In this document: positions 7,693-62,065 of the stretch, piece by piece | Layout: each line of letters starts with the position of its first letter | Position numbering within the stretch: position 1 is the first letter of the stretch | NCBI GenBank assembly: GCA_010356995.1 | Contig: ML996688.1 | Location: forward strand, 1,462,579-1,526,578 | Length of the DNA: 64,000 nucleotides | Origin: Trichodelitschia bisporula | Lineage: Eukaryota | Direction: 5' to 3' | Notes under the pieces: model-generated | Told to the model about the DNA's origin: nothing | The model's database searches: none | Seen by the model: the letters and a program-made list of their open reading frames with translations, nothing else | Translations under genes and position numbers: made by a program

Positions 7693-10600
7693 GTCCGCCA
7701 AAAAAGGCGACGACAGACTTGAGGTAGTAGGAGCTTTCCCACAGAAGACAACCGTTAGCAAGCGAAACTGTAGAAAGTGGCGGGGTTGATATATATTGAT
7801 TTTTTTGGCGAGACCGCGCCAAAAGGCGGGGGCAATAAACGCCAGGGACAGTAAGGGTCATGACATACCTCTTATAGAAACGTGCTGGAACGCGTGAGAA
7901 GTGGTTTGCGGGCTCGTGACTGTTTGATTTCGAGCGCTGTGGTTGGAGAAGGCAAATAGGAGGTGCGACGAATAAAGGATCGAGCGGGGATGTAGAGCGT
8001 CGCTATTAGTGGCGGTAGGCTGGGGGAGAGACGCAGCGCTGTGAGTGTTTGGCGGACAGCAGACAGGATAGCAGGATTATATCCTGTGAAAGCGAGAGGC
8101 AAGATCCGTCTCGCGGCTGGGGCACAGCCCAGCTCGTGATGTTATTGAGCCTTCAAAACGGCGATAAAAGGAAGTCGGGCTTCTGCAGCGAGAAGCTCTG
8201 GAGTGAATGCCAGAGGTTCGCTGCGAAAGGGCGGACGGGAATGATATTTGTAATGCGGGCGGAGCGGATGCAACAGCTTTGGCAGAATGGTGGGTTTGGG
8301 GCAGGTTATGCGCGGTGACGGCGGGTTTGACCGTTGGCCACTGCCGCTGCTTGCTTTGGGAGGTCTGCTGAGAGAGAGCTTTGATGAGGTGCAGACGGAC
8401 GCTGCCGACGCAAAGGGCGAGCTGACAGAGCGATGACAGGCGGTGGTGGTGGGTGCTATGGAGTTCGCCCAGGATCGAAGGAAGATAAATGCGAAGAGTC
8501 CAATGTTGGTGTTGTTAGTGGAGCAGGTTGTCCTTCCGAAGCAAAAATTCCAGTGTGCCGTGGGTGAAGGAGGGATTTCGATGAGTATGTAGCGTGAGAA
8601 GTGTGAGAAAATAGAGAGAAAAAAAGGCTGTTGGCGTCAACCGACCAAGCGGTAGGCTACGCTGTGTGCGGCGTGCCGAAGGGTACAAGGCGAGGCAAGA
8701 GGGAGAAGAGGGTCCTGGGTTCGGGCGGCCGGCGGGGTAATATTATGTGGTGCGAACGGCAACGAGGAGTGTGTCAATACTGGCGTGTGTGTGTGTGGAA
8801 GAAAGAGTAGATGAAGGGGGATGAAAGGGTCCTTGTGTGGGACCAACTGCAGCAATGTACTGTAGTACTCCAACACTCGAATATCCTCAAATCCACATCG
8901 ATAGGTACTCGGGTTGGTGATCGAGTTGTTGGTGTACCGAGCCCACTGCCGTTTGTCTTCGTCAATGCTGGAAGGTTCAGATGGACTGGTCGGTTGGGTC
9001 TGTTTTGTTCGATCACAGTCTTGTCGGTGTCCTTAGTTCGAAGAGTAGCTGCCTCTGATACGAGCGCTGTCCCTTCTCCGTACCGAGTACGACGTTGATA
9101 TTTGTACGATCAAAGCGAGATGCAGAACGTGAATCAGGGAAGGAGAAGGAGAAGAAGCTATCGGGGATCGTGGACCTTTATGCGGGGACTTGAACAGTGA
9201 ATGGGCGAGGTGTTCATGCTGACATCGTCCTTCACTTCATCACCACATCAAAGGCCGGTGGGAGTACCTGAACGCAACAAGAACTGCTTCGATAAGATGG
9301 CAACACGATGGGCACGATGATGTTCAATCTGTCGAAGCCCAACACGCGCTCGATATTGCGGCTTGGATCCTTTCTGATCCGCTCGTTTTATCCCTCATTG
9401 ATGCAGTTGCCTGCCAATTCCACGACACACATGTTTCCCAGTTCCCAGCCTCAAAGCTTGCCAGCAAGTCCAGACAATCCTCGCCGACGTCGTCTCACTC
9501 GCCGGTCCGCCCAATGGCAGCATAGCAGCTGAAGCGGTAACATGGATAGTTCCGCCGTTTCGGAAACGAAAGCCACAACACGGTAAGACTTGGCCTGATG
9601 TCGGGTGTGAAGCGGTGTTTACTTCCCAAGCGAGGACGCTGCTCCCTCCGCGAACTGTTGCTGATTTCCAGGATACACCTGATGTGGCGATTTCGTCAAA
9701 AATGCATTTCCTTTCGCCTCAACTACCGCCTTGGAAGAGAAACGTTAGAAGCGTCAGATGACATATTTCGATTTTTCCGGACTGATGAGCAATATCCGAT
9801 CGCTTCTTTCCCCAACAACGGCCGCCAGGGGTGGAGGGAAGGAAGGCCGCGCTCGAGAAAATCATCGGGCCGGTGATGACAAACGACCATGCTTAGCCTT
9901 CAACGGGGGAGCAAGCCGGCAAAGGCAGGCGGAAGAACAAAGCAAGATGGACGCGCCGAGCGACAAGCTGCACGCTTCTGCGAGGCAGAGCGAGCGTGCA
10001 AGAATCGTCAGCCGCCAGAATTTGGCTGGCCAGTCGGCTAGAAGCGAAGTGTATGAAGCAGCAGCTACGGTACGCGGACACGGTACAGGTGTGAAGAAGA
10101 GGGGGCGCGATTAAATTCCTCTGCGGCGAGTCAACCTCGAAGCTGCTTGCTCACCCGCGCTGAGAGGAGCTGTCGATGCACTTCGGTGTCTTCATGGCCG
10201 GGGCAGTATCAGTAGCAGCGGCAACAGCGGCGGCGGTTAACAGCAGTCGTAAGCTACTGTACCGAGAGACAAAACTCCAATTTCCGGCATCGCGACCCGT
10301 CTCCCGGATGGCACTGAGAGTGGTGGCCAATTTGAGCCCTGTATTCGCGTATAGAATAGCCTGTCGCATCCCAGTCCGCGAGCGCTGGCAACGACCAAAG
10401 GGGGCTGATGGTTTGGGCCCGAAGCCCAACGTCACCTCAATTCAGTCGTTCAGAACTGGCGCCGGGCATTTTGCGTGGCCGGGTGTCAATCCGGCGGACG
10501 ACGAGCATGTGGCCCAAGGCGGGCATCAAGCGATCACCGCTGAAGTTGTTTGATGTCAGACCGATACGTCCCCACCCTGGGAGAACCCGGCTTTGGTACC

Positions 10601-13345
10601 GCAAACCACACAACACCCACCGAATATCCCCAGATAGCCGATCAAAACTGCAACACCTGGCCGATCCACTCAAGAGCAAGGATATCATTTTGAGGGGCTT
10701 GCTTGCCGCTGTTTGCAGGGAAAAGGCGACATCTGCTTGTTGCCGCACGAGCTCCTCATCCTCCCTCATCCTTCTCTCAACCCCGCTCCAGCCAATGTCA
10801 GCTCGAGCTTTCAGAGCATGCCCGCCCCGCCCCGCCCCGCCCTCGCGGCCAGGCCATGTCCGGGAGTGCAACACATGTACTGCACATGTATTCTGCATGT
10901 ACCCTCTACGCCGTACCGTAGTATGTACAAGTATAATGCTCAATGCTGATCGCACAGCTCTATCTCTGCAAGCTGACACGTCCCCTCCCGTGCAGAGGAA
11001 CAACCTTCCGAGTTCGCCCTCACGACCGAGCATGCGGCGACGTGGCGGGTATCTGCATGTCTCATCTCTCCTTCTGCCGAAGCGGGTAGTGTAGGATGGA
11101 GGATGCAGGATAGGGCCGACCCGACTGCATGAGTATCTGAGAGATATTGTGATGCTGGAGTACCACATACCCGGCCCACAGACCGCAGTATCTAGCCTCC
11201 GTAACATGTGCTGCGCAGGTCCAGAGGTACAGTATGTCCAAGAGAATCGGAAACCAAACCACGAAGGGCCATAGGCTCGTTGCGTAGCTCATTCCGACGT
11301 CGACATCGACGTCGCACTGCCATGCCGCCACATCGGCTACACTTCCACCAATTGCTCGGCCCCTCATATCATACATAAATCGGAAATACAGCCAGCGACG
11401 AACGGAAATCAGTTCAGGGCCGGCTCGCATCATTTTTGGTGTCTGCTTGCGACATGGAGCCTGGGAGGGTCAATAGCTGCAGCTTTGCTCATGGCGCAAA
11501 ATACTCCCGTATCGTCGGATGCTAGTTACGTCAGGCTATCCGCCTTGGGTAGCGCGCAATGATGTTCCCGGTGACGGATGGAAGCATTATCTCTTGCCCC
11601 TCGAACAATGCCCGAACAATTCTCGGAACAACATCCAAGCCAAACGATTGCACCGTCTTCAATCACCGTCATTCCTCAATCGTCTCTATCCATCCCAACA
11701 TTGCTCCTTCCTCCCTCCCTTGCCAGGATTCAACCGCTGCCAACCACCCCCTCGGCTCAATCATGCACCAGCAATGCACGACGCAACCCCCGGCAGCAGC
11801 TGCAGCATGGAAGCGCACGCATGCATGCTGTCTCCGCAGCTCCGCGAGCTGCTATTCCACAGCTTCTCCGGGCATGGCATCAAGCTAAGTGCTGCGTTCC
11901 TTGATGCGTGAGGTAAAGTTCCGCTCCAAGACTGCACTTTACGGTAGGCAGGCGATGCTGCTTGGCGGGTTGTCAGTACGGTAAGGCGGTTGAGAGAGGG
12001 AACGACGGTACTGAGAAATTCAGTATCGGAGCTGGCCGAAGGTCAGTTGTATGGTCGGTATGTACCCCTCGAGTACCATTTGCGTACCTCTGCTCCGTTG
12101 TCCCGTCCTGCTGCTCTCTCACCGCATATATCAACACCAAGCAGCCTCCCGCACCGAGCATATTCCGGACGCAAGACGACCATTTCAACCCGACTCGTCC
12201 GTCGATCGTCCAAGACGTGGAATCTCTCATCCTTTGGACATCAAATCGCGCAAACGTCGAGTCGGGCCAAAAACAACGAGCCTGAAACCGCCTGGCTCTC
12301 CGAATCCGGGGAGTTACGACACCAGCATGGGCCAGCCAGCCTAGCCTCCCCTCTCACGCCAACATCCCAACAACTCCCACAATTACCTGCTCCAAGCCTC
12401 AATTTCCAGCTCACGATCTAGACGCAATTAAACACCCCTCTCACGACTCTAGACCAAATCACGCAATGCCCTCCTCGCCCTCACTAGCACTGTTCCCCGC
12501 GTTCGAACCCAACTCAGATCCCCCGCAGCCGCCCAGATCCCCACCATTCCCCGCACCACCACAATACGGCCGTGCTGCCCTATCTGACCACACTATCTCC
12601 ACTCATGGGTGCACAAGCTCCCAAACGTCCCCTCACCTCACCCTCTCTCAGTCCCCCCACCATCACCGATCATCCCAACAAGCTTCTTCCCGCGCCATCC
12701 CTAAAGCTTAGCAGCGCCCCAAATCTCATATCCACACCACCTCCCTAACCCATCCCCTCCCTTCGCAAAAATACCGCACTCCCCGGCCCTGACCGCCGCC
12801 GACAACGTGCAACCACGCCGCATGCTGGACGGCCAGGAGCAGGCGCTCCGCTCATCTCCCCACGACCTATTCCGACACCCAGTGCTGCGGCTCCGTATCG
12901 TCTGACGACGTCGCCGCCATAGCCGCATGCGCCCTTTGATGGGCCTTGCTCGTGGTGAGCGCGCCAGTTGAGGGTTGGCGACATATCCGGTGATATTTGT
13001 GGCTTGCTAGACTGATTCCTCTTTTCTTCCTTTCTTCTTCTTGATAGACTATGCTGGTGGTAGAAATTGATCTGCCTACGCAGTCCCACCCCCAAGTACA
13101 GTACACATCGCAAGAAGCGTGAACGCATGTGTCGTCGTTCCATGCATAGGGAATACTCTCAGTATCACCTTCAGCGGAGAAAGGAAGCAAAGAGGATAGA
13201 GATCTTCCTGAGATATCCGTATCAACAGAGTACAAGTGCCTTGCACTCTCTCTTCTCCCTCTGACCCCGCCAAAAACTCCGTGTTCATGGTGTCATGTTA
13301 GTGCATAGCGCCCGCCCTTCTGTGTATCCTTTTTTGTAGAAGTCC

Positions 13346-15854
13346 TCATTGCCCGCTTTCCGACGCCGGCATTTTAGCCTTTTCCTTCTCAGCACTGTCA
13401 TAGCCTGTTTCCGCCATTTTTGCCTTTACACTCGCCGCCATCACTCCAATCTTCTCCCCCACATCCATCGTCCTCTCTCCGGCATCCGTAACCTTCTCAC
13501 CCATCTTGTCACCCACATCAGCCATCTTCTTCGCCTGCTGAACCAAAATGCTCAACCCTCCACTAGCAACAGGCTTGACATGGTCGCCGACCTTCTCTCT
13601 AATAGCCCTCACCCCCTCAACACGACGCGTCAGATAGACCTTCGGACGGTGCACCTCTTCGTCAGCCTCCACCTCACCCTCCATGTCACCGCGCTTCGCC
13701 AATATGCGCTCAATCTCTTCCTGATACGCCTTCTCATACACATTCCCCTCCACAGCACCAGGCGACTCGCTCACCATCCACCCGGCGCTATCGTCCCCGT
13801 CCACAGACGGCGCATCGTCTGCGCTCGAGCCCACGCCGAGGTACAGCGTATCTTCGAGGGGGTCGTGCGCCTGCCCACGGCCGGACTCGTGCGTGCCCAA
13901 TATGCCTGTGGGTGAGGGTGATTTCATGGCTGGGCGCTCAGGGGGCGTAGCGTCGGCAGCGCGGACCAGCTTCTGCTTCAGCCGGTCTGCCCACGTCGTC
14001 GGCTTTACGGACGGCGGAGCGGAAGCGAGGCCCACTGAGGTTGAGCCGAACGGCGCAGGACTGTCTGGATGGACGCCGTCAGGGGCGAGAGCGCCGGGGG
14101 TTTTCCGGCGGTTTTCGAGGGTGGAGCTCTGTGTGCGGGTTATGGTTTGTGGGGGAGCAACTATGCGACCTCCCGAGAACAAGCCAGTCATGAGGTCTGG
14201 GCGTTTCCGGAAGAGGAGGCTCTTGAATTTGTTGACTGCTTTCATCTGGGCGTGTTAGTGCAGTGTGACGGGGATGAGCGCAACTTACTACCACCACCAA
14301 GTGGCCCATGTTCCCCGTGATGGCATTGTTGAGCTCTTCCTGAGTGGGCTCCTCGATGATCTCGGCGATATTCTCTTCGCGTGAGAGGAGTGGATCGGTG
14401 CCGTTGCGCGTAACCCAGGGGTGCTCCTGTTGGGTTATTAGCAAATTTCCGTGGGCGAGTGCCTCTCGGCAGCAGCACTTACACGGAGCTCATCCATCAT
14501 GATACGCTTTGCAGGATCCTTTTCTAGCAGTCTCACCATGAGGTCCCGGAACTCGTCGGAGCAACCCCCCAGTTGGCATTCTTCACTCTGAATAGCCTCG
14601 TAGAGCTCCAGCATCCCTCCCTTTTCGAACGGTATCCTTCCGTACCGAAGACAAAATAAGGTGACCCCCATAGACCAGATATCAGCGGCCCTGCCAGACA
14701 CCTGACCGTGCCTTGCCACGCAGAGCTCTGGTGGCATGAACGCCGGCGAACCTGCTGATTTTGATGTGGTCATTTCCGAGTTCTTTTCAAACATCTCCGA
14801 CACGCCAAAGTCAACAATCTTGAGGACATCGTCCGCTGTGATGAGGCAGTTGTCGGGCTTTATGTCACGGTGAATGATACCTTGGGCGTGTACTACGGGC
14901 GTTAATACACACATTGGCAAGGCGGCGAACTTACGATATTCAATTCCAAGGATCAGGTCTCGGAACCAGAGCCGGCACTGTTCTTCATCATACGGATCAG
15001 CGCTTTCGTCTAGTCCAACTTTCATCACCACCCCTTTCTGGCACAGCTCCATAACCATATACAGCGAATCCTCCTCGGGGTCATCGAGTACTTCGTAGAG
15101 CGATACCAGGTTCGGGTGATTAAGCTTTTTCATGACAGCAATCTCTTCGCGGATCAAATCAAGCGAATTGGACTTGCTACCTTTGTCGGAAGCGTGCCGG
15201 TGCAGCGGTGAGTTGAACCCCGCGCCAGCAGATAGGTTGTTGCGCACGCGGTTCGGACGGCGCAAGAGGTTCGACTGCTGTCGCTTACGCAGTCTCGACT
15301 TGGAGAACTCTTTGACAGCCTACACAATGTCGTTCCAATCAGCACTTGTTTTCTCAATCTCCTCCGCCTCGATTGCGACATCGCGTATCCAGGTAGCGTG
15401 GTAAAGAGGACCATACGTATTTGTTCCCATACTGGTCTGTTGCCAGATGTACCGAGCCAAACGAGCCCCGTCCAATCTCATCCTTGATGCAGTACTGATT
15501 TATGTGGTGTTCCGCTGTGCCATCGTCCTGACTGTTGCTGTACTCGGAGCGAGCATTGAGTGTTTCCTTCACATGTTATCCTACTCGCCCCTCACATGAA
15601 GAGTGAAAGCGAACCTTGATATGCCGCCGAGGGTTGGAGTGGACTCTCGAGTGGTGTCGTAGCGGACTATGGAACGCGGGCGCCGTCGACCTGTGGTATT
15701 AGACCACTATATTTTCAGCGCAAGGTTCGGCGACCTACACATGCTTTATCGACGGTGATTTTTTATCCACGGTTGGTGGGGTAGAGAAAGGAGAGATCAT
15801 AACGTCGTTGTCTGAGATGACACGATGCGGGGTTTGCTCTGTGGGGGTGCCCAT
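13346..15854 (-). CDS. Calcium/calmodulin-dependent protein kinase kinase (CaMKK, CmkC/Ssp1-like), 7 exons
   Basis: Motifs HHINQY..EIGRGSFGSV, AVKEFSKSRLRK, LDDPEEDSLYMV, HRDIKPDN, DFGVSEMF, AGSPAFMPPE. Introns read at 15691-15738, 15567-15614, 15320-15416, 14893-14934, 14427-14482 and 14246-14288. Confidence 0.88.
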
Positions 15855-16252
15855 GGCGTGGGAGCGGGGGGAATTGGAATAAAAGCTGGTCGCTCGGAAG
15901 CGCAGATCGGACGATGAACGAGTCAGACGCTGGTAATGGAAGAGGAGAAGAGAAAATGTAGGCGTTCAAGGAAGCACAGCAGCCGCAACTGGCATCAAAA
16001 ATGCAGGTCGCCTTGGGAGCTTCGCTGCTGCACATGAAAGCCTGTGAGAGATTGGACCCCGCATGTGGAGGGTGTTGCTCATTTCCTAGACCCAGCCTAG
16101 CGCTACCTCTAGGGGGGTTGGCGTGGTGGGGGTAGGGGTATCTGACGGGTGGCTTTCTCTTGGCTCTGGCGACTTCATGGGTTCCCGAACTTCACAGCAA
16201 TCCTCTTGATATCGCGGTCATCTTGCGCTGAGAAGACAGCCAGTAATCAGTC

Positions 16253-16857
16253 ATGGTTGTCTACTCCTTTTACATCTTTGACCGTCATAGTATGAGGCTC
16301 AATTCTATACAGCCATGTGGAGCCGAGTCCGCTAACAAGCAAACTAGCCGAATGCATCTACTCCCGGCGATGGAATCCGCGGCCAGCATCTAGCAGTAGC
16401 AAAGCCTCCAGACCTCAATCAGACATCATTGCGAATAGTGGCGAACCTGCACCTCCTCAACGTAAAGGCCTATCAAGGGAGGACGATGCGAAGCTCATCT
16501 TTGGCGCCATCTTCTCCCTCCGCAAACTGGTGCAGCGTCTGGGCGGTGAAGACAACCACTTCCTTTCATACCGGACGGGCGAATACAAGCTTCACTACTA
16601 CGAGACTCCAACTCGTATGAAGTTTGTCATGGTCACCGACACCAAGAGCAACAACCTGCGTGTCGCACTTCACCAAATCTGGGCCAATCTTTACGTCGAG
16701 TATGTCGTTAAGAACCCTCTCTCGCCTATTGAGCATGCCGGAGGTGTCGGTGTTGCCAATGAGCTCTTCGAGCAGGGCCTAGAGCGCTTTGTGGTGTGTT
16801 GATTGCTCCTGAATTGCTTCCCGGCTAACCACCTTTCAGGCGACTGTGTTGGCTTGA
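16253..16857 (+). CDS. BET5: TRAPP complex small longin subunit Bet5/TRAPPC1 (sybindin-like)
   Basis: MVVYSFYIFDRH, intron, TECIY...; AKLIFGAIFSLRKLV; YKLHYYETPT; LYVEYVVKNPLSP. A short final exon follows an intron near 16794-16839. Confidence 0.9.
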
Positions 16858-17465
16858 TACACATGTGGTAGCATCTCGGGGAGTCGCAGAAGTGCCAAAT
16901 ATTCAGCACTGCCCGTTTCCCTAGGAAACCTGGGATCTGGGTTCATGTAATGCCCTCGACCAGAGGGTTAGGCATAGGATCGGAGTTCTCGGAGTTCGTG
17001 GCGTAAGGTACGGATATCCGCGGCAGTTGCCTAGTAGAAATGCTCATCAGCTTTAGAGAGTTGAACCCACATACGCTCTGGCTCGTGACATTGCAAGCTT
17101 GATAAAGAGCAGGATAATGGAGTTGTCGCATTTGCATGATAGTAAGGACCAAGAGACGGAGTCCACTGAAACTTCAGTGTTGAACGTGCCGCAAGCTCAA
17201 CTGTTGACACCTCAAGTTCAGGGAGTGCACCTACAGCAGTTGGTGATATCATCTCAACCCTCCATGGACATGCACTTGACCCGTGGCTATCGAGCAGCAG
17301 CTAGAAGTCACAGGCGGAATAGCAAAGAAGCATTGCCAGCTTCACCTGCGGCGATTCACTCCGACAACAGACAAAAACCCTTCTTCCTCCCCTTTCCTCC
17401 CTTTCCTGCCAACCCCGCCCTCCAAATCTTCACATTTAACCGCCAAGATTTGACCTCTGCGGACA

Positions 17466-18458
17466 ATGCCAGAATCGTCGCCCAAATCCTCCCCAAAACC
17501 CTCACTGACAACCCCACCGAAGACCCCACCAAACCCCCCGTTTAAATTCAGCCCGGAGGCTCCCTGCTTCGTTCCACGCAGCCAGGCCCTCAACATGGCG
17601 GAAAATCCTGGTGCCACTACGGACATCCCTCAGAACGACATCCCCCCGCTGCCTGCCTGGGCCGCGCCCACCGAAGCCTCCAATTTCAATATGCCTTTCC
17701 ACCAGCAGCTCCCTCACTACGCCGCCAGTCACGCCTATGTTCCCGAGGTCAACCCGCCCGCGGGGAACAACTTCTGCCCTACCATGCAGGAGGCTGTGGA
17801 GCATACGTACGCCAACCCCGAGAGCACCTGGCAGAAGGCTGTGGAGCATACGTACGCCAACCCCGAGAGCACCTGGCAGAAGGCTCTGGAGCATGCGTAC
17901 GCCAATCCCGAGAGCACCTGGCAGAAGGCTGGGGAGTATGAGTTCCTCAACCATAACCCCAACACCTTTCAGCAGGTTTTGGAGCATGCGCGCCTCAACC
18001 CTAACGCGTCGATCTACCATCAGCCCCTCTATCAACCCGGCTCTCAGCCCGACTCCTTCAACGGGAAGAAGAAGAAGCACCGGAACGGCAAGTCGGGTCC
18101 CACCCTCAACGAGTACCTCGTCCATGGCGACGTCGCTCGCGACCTCACGAAAACTGTCACCTCGATGCGCTCGCTGCGCTACCCGCTCCGCGTCGGCGAT
18201 CAGCTCAAGGTGTGGGAGCATCAGGTCCGCCTTCGTCTGCGCGCCATCGATCTCGACAAGTACGTGTTCGGCGACATGAGTGCCAATACTGAGGACATTG
18301 CGCTCCTGGCCCTCGACCGTGCTTTGACTGCTTGGCTTCAGGAGAACCTTGAGCGCACCATCCTCGAGAAGCTCTTTGAGAAGGGGCTTATGAACGCCAC
18401 AGCCCCGCAGACTCTTCAGAGCATCCGCAAACTTGCTCGGGAGATGAAGGACGAGTAG
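17466..18458 (+). CDS. Orphan 330-aa protein with PAM2-like motifs, 15-aa tandem repeats and a C-terminal region resembling Ty1/copia Gag
   Basis: Intronless ATG-initiated ORF with strong C/G-ending codon bias. Contains FSPEAPCFVP, (AVEHTYANPESTWQK)x3, KKKKHR and WEHQVRLRLRAIDLDKYVFGD. The function call is inference. Confidence 0.7.
   Translation: MPESSPKSSPKPSLTTPPKTPPNPPFKFSPEAPCFVPRSQALNMAENPGATTDIPQNDIPPLPAWAAPTEASNFNMPFHQQLPHYAASHAYVPEVNPPAGNNFCPTMQEAVEHTYANPESTWQKAVEHTYANPESTWQKALEHAYANPESTWQKAGEYEFLNHNPNTFQQVLEHARLNPNASIYHQPLYQPGSQPDSFNGKKKKHRNGKSGPTLNEYLVHGDVARDLTKTVTSMRSLRYPLRVGDQLKVWEHQVRLRLRAIDLDKYVFGDMSANTEDIALLALDRALTAWLQENLERTILEKLFEKGLMNATAPQTLQSIRKLAREMKDE
17791..17925 (+). 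repeat. In-frame 45-bp tandem repeat, 3 near-identical units plus degenerate units to about 18015
   Basis: aggctgtggagcatacgtacgccaaccccgagagcacctggcaga starts at 17791 and 17836, a variant starts at 17881, and a partial unit at 17926. Confidence 0.95.
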
Positions 18459-18701
18459 GGTGGCTCCGCGATAGCCTTGTTGTGTGGTTGATATCTATTC
18501 TGCTGCATAGATTAGGTGTTGCAATGGTCGGTCGGTTTGTCTTCAGCATGGACTAAAACGGTGATTAGATCACTAGACACCCCAATTCACTGGTTTCATG
18601 CCATCTTGTGTTCCATCATCAGTGTTCAAAAACTAACCACTAGCTATCATGGGTGACCAAACATGCAGATCCCAAGCTCCCTCCCTCCCCACATCCCAGC
18701 C

Positions 18702-19742
18702 CTACTTATCCCCCTTCCCCTCAACCAACTGCCTCCCCCGCATCAACATCCACTCTCCCGCAGTATACACCCTCCCCCTCTCCAACTCCCCATCAAACTT
18801 CCCCGCCACATTCACCTCCCCCTTAAACCCCTCCACCGGCGCCATAATCGCCTCATCATGCGGTCTCACAAAATAAACAACACTGTACCGCTCACACTTC
18901 CCCTGCTCCCCCGGCGCAGGCACAACACGATGCTTCGCACTCTTCAGCTTCCCCGCCGTAAACGAAACCATCGCGTCGCCGAGATTGATAACCGCCCGCC
19001 CCGGGAGTGGCTTCACGTAGTCCCACTCCCCGACCCGCCCCTCCGCCCGGGACTGGATTTGCAGTCCTCCGAGCCAGTTGAATAGAATCGTCACGGAGCC
19101 GAAGTCCGTGTGCGACGGTAGCCCGACCGCGTCGGCAGCGATCGTCGGCGCTGTGTGCGTCAACCGCACGTGGTCGCCGCTCCTCTTCGTGAAGATATTT
19201 TGGCTCTGAAAGGTATCTTCCGGCAGACCCTGCGCGCGGGCCAGGCCCGCCTGTACCGCGAGACCGACCTCATGAGCCTCTTTCTGGAAGGTGCGGAACA
19301 GAGGCGCGGATTCGAGGATGATAGGGGGGTAAGACCGCGGCTCCGCGAAGCCGTGCATGTGGTCCTTGCTCACGTTGAAGAACTCAGTCGTATCCGGGCG
19401 CTTGTCCTTGTCTGTTGCTTTCACCGTCCCCACGGGCTTGTAGCCGAAGAGAGAGCCACCTGGGGTGAGTTTATGCGGGAGTTTCTCGTCCAGGGGCAGG
19501 GCGAAGGCGGTTTGGGCGAGGGAGAGAAGGGAGAGAGATTGGGTGAGCAGACTGCGTCCGCTGGGGCTGTCGCGCAGGTCGAGGTAGAAGAAGCCGTGCG
19601 TTGTGCATGCTTCAAGGAGGGCGGAGATAGCGGTGGGGTCGTGTGTGAAGAGGGCTTGGGAGGATATTTCGGCAATGGGGGCGGTGGGGAGGTTGGAGGG
19701 GAATGGGGGGAGGGAGGCGAGGACTTCGGTGTCGGTTGTCAT
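18702..19742 (-). CDS. 2-oxoglutarate/Fe(II)-dependent dioxygenase (IPNS/DIOX_N family)
   Basis: ACTTHGFFYL, HTD (HxD) in PSHTDFGSVTILF, INLGDAM, the distal His in KSAKHRV, and RYS (RxS). Probable ATG at 19742. Confidence 0.9.
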   Translation of the reverse strand: MTTDTEVLASLPPFPSNLPTAPIAEISSQALFTHDPTAISALLEACTTHGFFYLDLRDSPSGRSLLTQSLSLLSLAQTAFALPLDEKLPHKLTPGGSLFGYKPVGTVKATDKDKRPDTTEFFNVSKDHMHGFAEPRSYPPIILESAPLFRTFQKEAHEVGLAVQAGLARAQGLPEDTFQSQNIFTKRSGDHVRLTHTAPTIAADAVGLPSHTDFGSVTILFNWLGGLQIQSRAEGRVGEWDYVKPLPGRAVINLGDAMVSFTAGKLKSAKHRVVPAPGEQGKCERYSVVYFVRPHDEAIMAPVEGFKGEVNVAGKFDGELERGRVYTAGEWMLMRGRQLVEGKGDK

Positions 19743-48406: not shown

Positions 48407-51320
48407 ATGGAAAGCGCCGCAGGTACGACAGAACAGCAGCAGCATCAGCATCAGCATCAGCTCCATGTCAGCTCACTCCACGAAGGGGGACCGCCTGCGC
48501 GAAAGCTTCAAAAGGTGTCGCACCAAGGCACCGGCGCCGGTGCAGACGACGACGACTACTCAAACTCGGTGTTGAGGAAGCTCAACGCTTCATCGCGAAC
48601 AGGTCAGGCATGCGACCGTTGCAAGGTAAGTCGTCGCCAATCTTTCTTCTCTCCCCACGAATTGTCATGGTGCGAAGTCAACTTTAAGCTACGCCCCGCA
48701 CCTTTTCTGTCCTTCAATTCATCCTCTTTTCGTCCGGATCAGCCCGTCGGGATGGACTTATCGGGATGGCCGTACCAATTGCGTCCGCCCATCTCGCCCC
48801 GTCCCCCTTCCCCCCCTCTCTGATCCAACCGCACCCGCTCCCTTGGTGCCGCGCCGCATAAGCAGACGCTAAAAGGCTAACCCGTCGTGATTTCTAGGTC
48901 CGTAAGATACGATGCGACTCCACTGCTGGCGGCTGCAGCCCGTGCCGCCAGGCGCAGGCCACTTGCAAGACAACGGACCGAATCACTGGTCGCGCCACGA
49001 TTCGCGGCCACACTGACAAGTTGGAGGCGGAAAACCTCATCTTGCGCGCCAAAGTCAATGAGCAGCACCGCAAGCTGCTGGACGCTGGTATCCCGGTCGA
49101 TGACCTTCAAATACACGCTCACAACACCCCCTTTGCTTCCACGTCACCCGTCGGCAGCGTCTCCGGTCGCGTCAGCGCCTGGGATGCTCCACCGCCGCCG
49201 AATGGAAACCACTCGCCCTTCGGGCCCGGGCCGGCTTCTGCCTCTGCATCGGCTCCCGCGCCTCGGACGCGCGGCTTCTTCGACCAATTCTCCAGTACCA
49301 ATGTCGCGGCGCAGCCAAATACCGGCCTCAGTATCTTCCGCGGCACGAAGATGTCGCTGTTCGGCTGGCAGTGCGACCTGACGGAGCTGGTGGACGAGGC
49401 CGAGGATCCCGACTCGCCGACGTCGTACGACGGCTTCATGAAGCACATCTTCCACCGGGTACCACCCACGGGACCGGCACCGCTGCCGCCGACATTAGAA
49501 GACGCCAAGCCGTACGCTAACTGGTACTTTAACTTCTTGAATGCGTATACGCCCGTCTTACATAAACCCGACATGTTTGCTCTCCTTGCCGAAGTCTACA
49601 CCGACCCGACGCCCGGTCCGCGGCAGGGCAGGACCGTGGCCCAGGAAGTCATGCTCCATATGATGTTTTGCCAAATCAAGTACCAGACCGGTCAGCGTAA
49701 CAGGCGTACAGCGGCAATGGACGAGGCCATGGCGCATTTCAAATACAGCCTAAAGTTCTGGTTCGAGTTGTGCCAGAGCCAGACCCTCCAGGACGTCCAA
49801 GCGCTGGCCATGATAACCGTTCAACTGCGCAACTTTCCAGCTCCAGGCGCGGCATGGTATGCAACGCAGAACGTGCTCTCGCTCGCCGTCGAGTTGGGCC
49901 TCCACCGGTCTGCAAACGCCTGGTCCGCCATTGACCGCCGCGAGATGAGCGAGCACGAGATCGAGATGCGCAAGCGTGTCTTCTGGATCTTGTACGGGCT
50001 CTCCGTGGGCATCAACGTGCGGCTAGGCCGACCAGCCCCGATGCGCGCCGACGACATCGATATCGAGTTCCCGCGCCCTGTCAACGATAATCTGCCTGAG
50101 GAGGAGGACCGCCTCAGCGAATTTGGCAAGTGTACCTTCCATGTCGGCATATCCGTGTGCCGTATCTTGGCGCTCTTCGGAGAGATGTACACGACGCTGT
50201 ACACGGTGCGCGGATTTTCCCCGCAGCAGTACGACGCGCACGTGGCGCGGCTCGAGGCCGACCTGCGGACATGGCGCAGCTTGATCCATCCCGAACTTGT
50301 TGACCCGGACCGCGCAAAGGGCGAGGCGCAGGTCTTCAGCCTGTTCCTGTCGTTCTTTGACCTCGAGTTCCAGTTCTTTCTGCGCCATCCCGTCATCTTC
50401 CCTCCTGCCAACCAGGTACAGTATCGCGCCAATCTCGTGACGACCCTCGGCGTCATCACCAAGATGCTGGGAGTCCTGAGCCGCATCCGTGACGTCAAGT
50501 GCCTCGACGTACCGTGGATCACGGTTATCGTATTCCTGGCTAGCATTTTTACGGCATTATTCGCGCAGGACCAGCGTAAGGATGAGATCACACAGCAGGA
50601 AGTGACGCAGCTCGGCGACGACATGGAGGTGTGGATCGGCATCCTGGGCGACGTGGCCGTCATCCATGGTAAGCCATTGCATCTCGTTCCTTTTTCGCAT
50701 CTAACCCCGCAGGCATGAGCAACCGCCTCCAAGGCCACATCGCCGAAATAGTGCACCACGTCATCTCCAACATCTCCAACGAAGTGCACGCCGCCGCCGC
50801 CGCCGCCGCCGCCAAATCCCTGCACCAACAACACGACGCCTACCCCCCCGAACACAAGCCCTACCTCCCGCCCCAGCCCTACCCTCCCCAACCCGCCTCC
50901 TACCCAGACTCCTACCCGCCCGACCCAACTTACCCCCCGGACACCTACCCATCCCAAGGCCTCTACCCCGTCCCCGCGGCCCAGGATCCGCAACTCCCGC
51001 AAAGCCACGTCCTGGCCCCGCAGCCCGCGCCGCAGATCTACGGGTATTACCCGCCGGCCGCCGTGGTGCCCGCGCAGCAGCAGCCGCCGCAACAACCGGC
51101 GGCGGAGTGGCTCCGCTGGGCGGGACCCAATTTGGCCGGGTTTCCCCAGGTGAGTAATGGGGCGCAGGCGGCGGGGAGTCCGCGTGGGGAGTTTCCGCGT
51201 GAGGCGAGGACGTTGGTGGAACTTAGGGGGGGTGGGCCGGCACCGCAGGAGGATGAGGCGAGTGCTTGGCCGAGCATTGTGTATATGCTTGGGCCAGGGG
51301 ATGGGGGGAGGGGGGCTTAG
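48407..51320 (+). CDS. Zn2Cys6 binuclear-cluster transcription factor with fungal-specific middle homology domain
   Basis: RTGQACDRCK|VRKIRCD...CSPC...CKTTDR across intron 48626-48897; ELGLHR and EMRKRVFW..LGRP; second intron 50669-50712. Confidence 0.88.
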
Positions 51321-52476
51321 GGGGTGAGGTGTGATGTGGGGTTTGAGTGGTATGCTGGGTTATAGGATGGGTGGGATGGCGCTTTTAGGGTCTACTAGGA
51401 CCTGGCATTGCTTCATCTGTGGGATTTCAAATCGGGAGGGTTGGTCATAGGTCTGTTTCTGTCAAAAGCGTTGCTTTGTTTCGTTTCTAGCATTGGGAGG
51501 CTGTCTGAACATCATTGCCCCCCCTTTGCCGGTTGGCGGGGCGGGTGTGGGAGATAGGTCTGTTGATGGAGATTTGCAGTGGATCTGTGCTTCCGCCGGC
51601 GAGGGGTTGAGTGAAGGCGTTTTTCTTGATATCCCACATCCTTCCAGACACATAATGGGGCGCGGATAGGGCCGCTGCTTCAAGGGTTGCGAGAAGGAGG
51701 AAATGAGTATATGAGAGCATACAAACACGTGACATACCTATCATGGCGATGATTGAAATGCAGCGGTGAAAAGTGAAAAAGTTACCAGCGTCATCGATTG
51801 AGCGAAGCCGATGTCTGAACTATCTCCAACCTCCAAATTGCTGCTTATTTTGATGCCCGTTACGCGCGATCCCTCGCTGACGTCCAAAGAGAGTGTGTAT
51901 GGCGTCGCGTGCGGTAAGGATCACCCCCGTAGGCCTCCGCGGTCGCGCATGGCGTTGCATAAAAAATGCCGTTGGTGCTTCAGCTCGGGCTCCTGCCTGC
52001 ATATCTTCAGCTTTGCGGTGAGCGGTTCATCCGCTTCACTCTTACCAACTCCACGCAAACGTGAGGCCGCACCGTCCCATCAGCCCCCAACTCCAACACG
52101 GCCTCAACCTTATGCTTGTCAGCACCAATTGCGGCTCGGATACTCGCCATGTGCGCGTGGCGATAAGATTCACCGAGTATGACGCCAGTTGGTGTAAGGG
52201 GATGGAGCAGCTAGGACCGGACCGTGCTTGCGGCGGCGGGTCCGCGTGCGGGGCGTTTACTCACCGTTTCTTTGTCTGCTAACGGATGTACTTTTGTCTA
52301 TCATTGTAATTTACGGAATGTAAACCCTCATCCTTCCCGTTCCCCTAACCCTTTCTCTCTTTGTTCATCCTATCCTCGATCCTGGGCCCAAACCCTTGGG
52401 CTTCAATTGACCCTCGCTTCAATTCCCCTCGCTGTGCTGCAATCCTTACGGAGGCCTAGTGCTCCTACCCGGCACA

Positions 52477-60781: not shown

Positions 60782-61414
60782 TGCTATCGTGCTTGTTTGA
60801 GTTTTGGGTTCAGGTGGGTTGATTAAGAGGAGGTTGCCTTTGCAGATTTCGTGGCCGGAATGTAGATGCGTAACGGTGTTCAGAAGGCGAAGGGGTGTGC
60901 TAGGAGGCATGGTTAGCGAACGGTATGTACCTTCCTCATCGATGCTTAGTTCCGGGTAACCGCACCGCACAACTACTACTATAAATGGGAATTACAAAGA
61001 TTGGTCCAAGACTAAAGTTCGTTCGGCCAAGGTACAGCTTCGTAGCCTTGCGGACAAAAGTACCGAGTGTGAAAATGGAACGGAGAGCAGGGAAAGGGCG
61101 CAGGTGGTGGAAGACATACTCAACTTGACATTGGAGAGGCTTGTAAGCAACGGAGTAGATATCTGTTACAAAGCCTTGATACAGAAAAATGTTTCTATCT
61201 CGTGAAGATCGAGGTCATTCTTTCGAGGCACCTCCGCTTGCAGATGCGCCTCGACCGGGGTGTTTGCGGAGAAATATCTTGGCATCAGAATCCCGAAGTC
61301 GAAGCTTCCCACGACCCCAACCTCGCGCATCTCACCAATCCAACCCACCACATCGCCGCGATACTCCATCCAACCCTCCCACACGCATCCCACCTCACGA
61401 CCACGCCACCCACC

Positions 61415-62065
61415 ATGTCCACCCCTTCCCCCTCCACCCCTTCCCCCTCCACCCCACCCGCCCCCCGCAACCCCTCCCTCCTCTCCAGCTACCGCAAACC
61501 CACCACCAACCCCAAAACCGAACGCCTCTCCCTCCCCCCAAACACACGCATGACGCTCGGCTTCGGCACCGCCTTCCTCGTCGGCAGCGGACTGGGCCTA
61601 GCCAATGGCGGCACAGCAGCAGGAATGCGCTTCCGGGCTGAAAACGCGCACCGCCTGCCCACCTCCCAGCAAGGGTGGTACTTCTACCACAAGAGCAAGA
61701 ACTACCACACACTACTAGGAGGGGCGCGGGAAGGCGGGCTCATGGGCCTCAAAGTCGGGCTATGGGTGACCGCGTTTTTGGTTATGGAGGAGGCGGTTGA
61801 TCAGAGTCGCGGTGCCGGAAGGAATAAGGATTTTCTGTCTACGCTGGTTGCCGCCGCGGCGACGAGTGGGGCGTTTAGTGCGTGGAATCGGTTTCCGATT
61901 ACGACGGCCGCGCGGACGGCGAAGATGGGGGTTAAGATTGGGCTTGGGTATGGGTTGTTGCAGGATGGGTTCAGTTATTTGCAGGGGAGGAGGTTGGGGT
62001 ATGTGGAGTTGGTGAGGAGCTTGGTTGGGAAGGGGGAGGAGTATCGGGATCCGAGTTTGCCTTAA
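61415..62065 (+). CDS. Tim17/Tim22/Tim23-like mitochondrial membrane protein
   Basis: RFRAENAHRLP..GWYFYHKSKNY followed by Gly-rich TM segments. Confidence 0.7.
   Translation: MSTPSPSTPSPSTPPAPRNPSLLSSYRKPTTNPKTERLSLPPNTRMTLGFGTAFLVGSGLGLANGGTAAGMRFRAENAHRLPTSQQGWYFYHKSKNYHTLLGGAREGGLMGLKVGLWVTAFLVMEEAVDQSRGAGRNKDFLSTLVAAAATSGAFSAWNRFPITTAARTAKMGVKIGLGYGLLQDGFSYLQGRRLGYVELVRSLVGKGEEYRDPSLP

Follow-up and report, generated by a model that had tools for sequence, protein, structure and literature searches.

A transcribed, intronless orphan gene of Trichodelitschia bisporula with a PAM2-like motif and a candidate copia Gag-like domain

Does a fungal gene that stands alone among ordinary neighbours, and for which no orthologue is known, carry a piece of a retrotransposon capsid? 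The question is raised by an open reading frame (ORF) of 330 amino acids in a 64,000-nucleotide stretch of the Trichodelitschia bisporula genome (NCBI GenBank assembly GCA_010356995.1, contig ML996688.1, positions 1,462,579 to 1,526,578 of the forward strand; hereafter the window, in whose coordinates all positions are given). An earlier reading of this DNA, made from its letters alone and called here the sequence-only reading, had proposed that the ORF is a domesticated retroelement gene, in which PAM2-like motifs, tandem repeats and a Gag-like domain of the copia type are fused. The ORF is as follows.

17466..18458, plus strand: intronless ORF of 330 amino acids with an ATG start, from the open-reading-frame list; the coordinates include the stop codon

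The ORF is a true host gene of a filamentous ascomycete, transcribed and free of introns, and not a copy of a retrotransposon. As to its origin, we regard it as an evenly balanced proposition that the gene encodes a motif-rich disordered arm followed by a strongly diverged domain resembling the N-terminal part of the copia Gag capsid. According to this reading, residues ~218-330 would be descended, with strong divergence, from the N-terminal capsid portion of Ty1/copia Gag, that is, of the region of DUF4219, Retrotran_gag_3 and the front of Retrotran_gag_2. The motifs quoted in the sequence-only reading were all found again in the 330-residue protein; their residues and their interpretation are given below.

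Gene model and expression

The start codon is the first ATG downstream of an in-frame stop that lies 4 codons ahead of it, and the stop-to-stop ORF begins at 17454. According to a codon model built from 14 Pfam-confirmed reference ORFs of the same window, the in-frame log-likelihood of the ORF is 0.505 bits per codon, which is higher than in all 14 reference genes (0.23-0.46). This signal is positive in 4 of 4 segments of the ORF and does not exceed 0.17 in the other five frames, while the G+C content of third codon positions (GC3) is 0.77 versus 0.70 in the reference. The codon bias noticed in the sequence-only reading is thus real and specific for the frame.

Transcription was assessed with contigs from two runs labelled 'RNA?' (X3 and X4), both made from one sample, and from a DNA run (X1). 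The whole ORF is spanned by contigs of X3 and X4 with 0 differences from the window, so that the absence of transcripts, which would have spoken against the sequence-only reading, is not observed. In the neighbouring kinase and Sybindin genes the X3 and X4 contigs skip GT..AG or CT..AC introns, and these joints are absent from X1. Inside the ORF, by comparison, no intron joint was found in the RNA contigs, in agreement with the intronless structure claimed earlier; the sole joint there is a skip of 45 nucleotides, exactly one unit of the tandem repeat discussed below. The target gene has 0 introns in 1.5 kb, compared with 4-5 short ones per 1-1.3 kb in its neighbours. The transcribed stretch is the following.

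17055..18551, plus strand: last-exon stretch under the RNA contigs (X3 to 18532, X4 to 18551)

Beyond ~18551 the coverage drops (in the bin 18568-18761 the depth is 0 in X3 and 23 in X4, and the DNA run X1 continues); we do not count this drop as a mapped 3' end, and the depth figures give no copy number.

None of the remaining parts of a retroelement (long terminal repeats (LTRs), protease, integrase, reverse transcriptase, CCHC knuckle) was found at the target locus. No pair of LTRs was detected: between positions 8000 and 28000 the only direct repeat of at least 40 nucleotides is the internal tandem of the ORF, and there are 0 inverted repeats. Of the 160 stop-to-stop ORFs of at least 120 amino acids, 142 were scanned against Pfam and gave no match to pol or Gag families (reverse transcriptase, integrase, RNase H, Gag); the other 18, nested or overlapping, were excluded by hand, and the target ORF was scanned separately. 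A tblastn search of the whole window for remnants of copia, made with 24 natural long ORFs from the metagenome loci collected for the Gag profile below, returned 9 high-scoring segment pairs (HSPs) at E<=1, none of them convincing, and the best one stems from a bacterial, non-copia ORF. The protein has no CCHC zinc knuckle and only 2 cysteines, and no LTR-flanked copies exist within the window. The repeat search, the Pfam scan and tblastn therefore agree with the earlier statement that neither pol nor LTRs lie nearby.

The C-terminal domain and copia Gag

The possible retroelement origin of the gene depends on its C-terminal domain, to which the segment quoted in the sequence-only reading (K248 to K322) belongs.

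18117..18455, plus strand: C-terminal all-helical domain, residues ~218-330, candidate copia Gag N-terminal capsid-like domain (ESM Atlas, global hhalign alignment, AlphaFold helices of low confidence)

18195..18272, plus strand: motif G244-x5-W250-x3-V-x3-L-x4-L-x3-V-x-G269, aligned to G.NY..W...m...L of copia Gag in the DUF4219 region (HMMER and hhalign)

ESM Atlas holds its own model of the exact protein, and the structure and feature searches made there count as one source. The first structure search gave clusters of copia Gag or of the copia polyprotein in 9 of its 10 rows, with template modelling (TM) scores of 0.52-0.64. In the second one all 10 rows were copia Gag (TM 0.62-0.74, with 88-104 residues aligned within 218-330), although, according to a note of the tool, ten of ten matches to the same family are also obtained for a third of shuffled proteins. 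In the feature search all named family sets in the top 30 were copia Gag (DUF4219, Retrotran_gag_2, _3 and _4), with scores of 0.83-0.89, which lie below the 0.9 under which the tool rates a score as a lead only.

Another line of evidence comes from a Gag profile of our own. Its source was 111 metagenome stretches with the classic copia reverse transcriptase motif, in which 37 of 58 upstream ORFs were scanned against Pfam, 23 of them with Retrotran_gag_2; the profile consists of the 18 sequences in which this domain is near-complete. One metagenome locus matching the reverse transcriptase motif (L074) is bacterial, with a response regulator carrying PAS domains and a CN hydrolase, which indicates that the degenerate 26-nucleotide pattern also gives chance matches. 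A scan of viral contigs for the reverse transcriptase motif gave 0 matches.

In hmmsearch run with --max, profile positions 15-66 align to residues 244-291, and G244-DQLKV-W250-EHQ-V-RLR-L falls without gaps on the N-terminal G.NY..W...m...L of Gag, where the columns for G, N, W and L are conserved among the 18 aligned sequences. The local HMMER score of residues 205-330 with filters off is 3.7 bits, compared with 1.3 for the reversed sequence; of 5000 shuffles, 52 do equally well or better. Local alignment by hhalign picks the same motif site (P=0.029, with a probability of 1.7%). The global hhalign alignment of residues 236-330 to the N-terminal half of Gag, for which region and columns were chosen after the local alignment had been viewed, scores 14.45 (P=0.0081). 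The highest of 409 shuffles scores 12.4 (mean 3.6, standard deviation 2.2) and the highest of 347 natural fragments of 95 amino acids, taken from 15 proteins of the window, scores 10.0 (mean 2.8), neither set attaining the value of the query. The other parts of the target protein (1-235) score 3.3-6.7 against the Gag profile.

The match is confined to the front of Gag (approximately the front 100 profile columns) and includes neither the rear capsid half nor the CCHC knuckle. One detail of the earlier proposal was not reproduced: the pairing of a C-terminal segment with the Gag signature TA...W..L was not chosen by hhalign, which placed ILEKLFEKG on the last profile columns instead. As for the Gag-like domain as such, the Atlas searches and the register-consistent match of our own profile support the proposal, while the silence of Pfam, the score below those of genuine Gags and the raised control with the other half of Gag speak against it, and no confident AlphaFold model was obtained. 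All in all, we lean slightly to the opinion that the likeness to Gag, as judged from alignments and predicted folds, is repeated and consistent in register but remote.

The length of the part preceding this domain is also informative. Of the 13 natural Gags that could be measured, 12 have the conserved W 17-45 residues after the first Met and one has it 117 residues after; in the target protein the distance is 249 residues. Such a long front arm is atypical for copia Gag and favours a fusion or a grown extension.

The N-terminal arm

The following features precede the C-terminal domain.

17541..17576, plus strand: PAM2-like short linear motif FKFSPEAPCFVP, residues 26-37 (Pfam PF07145 match, residues 25-40)

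17786..17936, plus strand: tandem repeat of 45 nucleotides, 3.4 copies with 94% matches (Tandem Repeats Finder; a second repeat search agrees)

17928..18023, plus strand: two degenerate 16-residue copies of the repeat unit, residues 155-170 and 171-186 (read by eye)

18066..18083, plus strand: basic patch KKKKHR, residues 201-206 (from the sequence)

Residues 1 to ~215, rich in P, N and Q, are probably disordered: the fraction of P, Q, N, S, T and G is 0.52 in residues 1-109 as against 0.22 in residues 236-330. The motifs of this arm are one PAM2-like motif (26-37), five copies of a 15-16-residue unit with NP and an aromatic residue, and KKKKHR, which may be akin to a nuclear localisation signal.

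The PAM2-like motif is the sole Pfam match retained for the 330-residue protein. Against PF07145 the full-length protein scores 12.8 bits (E=0.1) and its first 200 residues alone score 14.7 bits (E=0.025), both below the family's gathering cut-off of 20 bits. The matches to WWE_4 (E=0.029, residues 107-122) and IF2_N (E=0.17) were taken as noise. PAM2 binds the MLLE domain via a highly conserved Phe and a highly conserved Leu, according to the part of PMC11572963 consulted here. In the register given by the Pfam match to residues 25-40, F35 sits at the conserved Phe position and F28 occupies the conserved Leu position. With the fungal PAM2 proteins Upa1 and Upa2, as the same part of PMC11572963 describes them, the target shares a 12-residue motif set in a proline-rich and probably disordered region, with the key Phe and with A..F.P spaced alike. 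It differs from them in its sub-threshold score and in having Phe in place of the conserved Leu, and its binding to MLLE is putative. We consider the binding of poly(A)-binding protein by this motif plausible.

The sequence-only reading had counted ARLNPNASIY as a second motif of the PAM2 type. A Pfam scan of residues 161-200 alone returned 0 families at E<=10, and of the two motifs only the one at residues 26-37 retains profile support, below threshold as it is. ARLNPNASIY (residues 175-184) lies inside the second of the degenerate copies listed above. The 45-nucleotide tandem encodes three near-identical 15-residue units A[VL]EH[TA]YANPESTWQK (residues 110-154), as had been noted earlier, and since two degenerate 16-residue units follow them, ARLNPNASIY is, judging by the repeat pattern, a decayed fifth copy of the tandem unit and not an independent motif.

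The RNA contigs of X3 and X4 hold one 45-nucleotide unit fewer in the region 17790-17836, and in the DNA run X1 the contigs are interrupted at 17820/17856. Because the DNA contigs break at the same spot, the skip does not represent an intron; most simply, it is either an assembly collapse caused by k-mers in identical units or a difference in copy number between samples.

Alternative explanations

Besides the limits given above with the Atlas, hhalign and PAM2 results, several points weigh against the reading of the gene as an arm joined to a Gag-derived domain. None of the Pfam Gag models (DUF4219, Retrotran_gag_2/3/4, TYA) matches the whole protein, residues 201-330 or residues 221-330 at E<=10, with the reservation that the HMMER filters may hide very weak matches. 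Four genuine Gags left out of the profile score 21.4-81.9, all of them above the 14.45 of the query. The control with the C-terminal half of Gag is raised as well: the domain scores 9.66 there, a value that 4 of 150 shuffles attain, and part of the Gag signal is therefore generic helical character. AlphaFold run on the single sequence predicts helices in the C-terminal domain with low confidence: the predicted local distance difference test (pLDDT) score is 40 for the whole protein and 46.5 for residues 208-330. Searched with this poor model, Foldseek returned 11 matches in PDB, all at E>=6 and none of them a capsid, and VIA-align found generic helices only and no capsid; as the AlphaFold models are too poor, these two results say nothing either way. 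The RNA support of the gene comes from two runs of one sample. Finally, no orthologue is known, and so neither selection nor synteny can be shown.

The searches by sequence gave no relative. With the whole protein, a word-index search recovered only the protein itself among 1165 candidates. For residues 205-330 at E<=10, the 264 candidates of similar length yielded no match but the protein itself, and the 13 shorter candidates yielded none at all. In a phmmer search against 1.84 billion representatives there were 3 non-self matches, all between the repeat region 104-186 and unrelated repeat proteins; being driven by the repeat, they were judged spurious. A metagenome scan gave 66 pattern matches and 0 relatives, the sequence search of PDB gave only noise at E>1, and no paralogue was found by tblastn within the window (5 HSPs, E 0.69-9.7).

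A possible explanation, which we take seriously while favouring it less, is that of a fast-evolving, lineage-restricted fungal protein of non-retroelement origin, whose helical tail is an unrelated small bundle. In this case the likeness to Gag would arise from generic amphipathic helices and from a tendency of language models to draw helical orphans toward Gag. The missing Pfam match, the low hhalign probability (~2%) together with a score below all 4 left-out Gags, the raised C-half control and the Atlas scores, with their limits, all fit this explanation, and the near-identical 45-nucleotide repeats suggest a rapidly changing gene. Against it stand the uniformity of the Atlas results, which name copia Gag in each of the 10 structure rows and in every named feature set and show no mix of helical families, and the fact that an independent profile lands without gaps on the same N-terminal motif. 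Further, no sequence among the 756 of the null sets attains the global score, and an intronless gene amid intron-rich neighbours fits a retro-origin.

It is improbable, in our opinion, that the whole ORF is simply the front half of Gag from a Ty1-like element with a long disordered N-terminus, i.e. a product of truncation with no host fusion. Ty1 Gag does have a long disordered, prion-like N-terminal region, and the 117-residue lead in one of the 13 measurable natural copia Gags shows that longer leads occur; however, the 249 residues before the W far exceed the 17-45 found in the other 12, there is no match to the Pfam TYA family, and residues 1-235 stay at background against the Gag profile. 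The least probable of the explanations is that of a functionless, decaying copia fragment or a chance ORF in GC-rich DNA. The failure of the protein searches and of the metagenome scan to find relatives would be expected of such an ORF, and long ORFs are present in two other frames of the same stretch; against this stand a codon signal that is frame-specific and the highest of the genes tested, the spliced RNA contigs covering the ORF, the absence of an LTR, pol or other remnant nearby, and a G+C content resembling that of the neighbouring genes.

Possible function

If the gene is a fusion of a disordered arm with a Gag-derived domain, the latter could self-associate or dock onto copia Gag, and the arm could recruit host partners through its motifs. 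The most specific candidate partner is poly(A)-binding protein, which would be contacted via the PAM2-like motif. In such a case the protein might act as an adaptor or a decoy on cytoplasmic mRNA-protein particles.

A bolder version of this scheme, which we regard as distinctly improbable, supposes that the gene is one of a family of captured N-terminal domains of the copia capsid, which evolve fast and which an arms race with copia elements has made unrecognisable by sequence. Its PAM2-like arm would sit on poly(A)-binding protein at the mRNA particles where Gag assembles, and its capsid-like domain would cap or poison the growing lattice, which would make the protein a host-encoded counterpart of Ty1 p22 derived from the opposite half of Gag.

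Comparison with known systems

Ty1 p22/p18 is an element-encoded restriction factor, and p22 is the C-terminal half of Ty1 Gag. The target would resemble p22 in concept, as a partial Gag able to interfere with capsid assembly; unlike p22, which is C-terminal and made by the element, it would be a fragment of the N-terminal type, encoded by a separate host gene. By analogy, p22 thus appears to be the nearest functional parallel of the target gene, though it comes from the other half of Gag.

As to structure, the predicted helical fold of the target is nearest to clusters of the N-terminal capsid region of Ty1/copia Gag, for which a model of the Drosophila copia capsid is given as PDB 8S41 in the portion of bioRxiv 10.1101/2024.02.21.581285 consulted, and the pattern G-x5-W-x3-[MV]-x3-L is in register with this region. 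In contrast to Ty1/copia Gag, the target fails the Pfam models, has ~215 extra residues at its front compared with the 17-45 of most natural Gags, and lacks the rear capsid half, the zinc knuckle, pol and LTRs.

The closest fungal cases are those of Wang and Han (2021; PMC8321522), who, in the sections of their survey used here, report three co-options of gag in fungi, two of them from Ty1/copia (Crtg12 and Crtg13). Their genes are defined there by a recognised Gag domain, by synteny across families and by a ratio of nonsynonymous to synonymous substitution rates (dN/dS) <1, this ratio being 0.996 for Crtg12 and 0.115 for Crtg13; expression is reported for almost all of the new genes, with weak evidence for Crtg12 (PMC8321522). 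Like Crtg12 and Crtg13, as those sections present them, the target is a stand-alone gag-like ascomycete gene without pol or LTRs. In contrast to them, it has neither a recognised domain nor a known orthologue and would escape a screen of the kind described. Measured against the definition of Wang and Han, the target is expressed and free of element parts, and its Gag domain is not a recognised one. It works like a co-opted gag and may be one, but it cannot be filed as a member of this group.

Genomic context

The upstream neighbour on the plus strand is a Sybindin-family TRAPP subunit, further upstream there is a protein kinase on the minus strand, and downstream a 2OG-Fe(II) oxygenase on the minus strand.

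16253..16857, plus strand: spliced coding sequence of the Sybindin gene, completed across the intron at ~16793-16838 (GT..AG)

17006..17054, plus strand: GT..AG intron between the Sybindin stop (16857) and the target ATG (joint in the X3 and X4 contigs, absent in X1)

The intron at 17006..17054 is either an intron in the 5' untranslated region (UTR) of the target gene or a 3'UTR or read-through intron of the Sybindin gene. One RNA contig spans both genes, which, contigs being unable to show a single transcript, leaves their relation as follows: together with the upstream ORF, the span could reflect a read-through or shared transcript, or else a long 5'UTR with upstream ATGs. This upstream ORF encodes 142 amino acids (17117..17545), has a weak codon signal (0.155) and overlaps the start of the target ORF.

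The kinase gene (14300-16043, minus strand) has five short introns of 42-97 nucleotides, confirmed by the RNA contigs. In X4 a single RNA contig joins the kinase gene to the plus-strand genes, which shows that the assembly merges overlapping transcripts of opposite strands.

The window as a whole holds genes usual for an ascomycete (Sec8, a SUN protein, kinases, RFX, DnaJ, Cbf5, kinesin and others), in line with the earlier description of the ORF as lying between housekeeping genes. Other long ORFs without a Pfam family at E<=1e-5 are found at 13349-14254 (minus strand, 302 amino acids), 61073-62062 (plus strand, 330 amino acids), 49824-51359 (minus strand, 512 amino acids) and 10360-11288 (both strands, 244/283 amino acids). 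Some of these may be antisense shadows; the ORF at 49824-51359 overlaps a Fungal_trans gene on the opposite strand.

Implications

Captured gag genes such as Arc, PNMA and RTL are well known in animals. In fungi, the survey cited above (PMC8321522) names in the sections used here only three cases, all of them detected because their Gag domains could be recognised and their synteny was conserved. If the target domain is not derived from Gag, the present case is a warning that fold searches based on language models may pull helical orphans toward Gag. If it is derived from Gag, surveys of this kind miss a class of capsid fragments that are too diverged for profiles to detect and are joined to motif-rich disordered arms. 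A capsid fragment bearing a PAM2 motif would link the control of retroelements to poly(A)-binding protein and, provided that the domain is Gag-derived, the orphan genes of fungi may hide more retroelement-derived proteins than has been thought.

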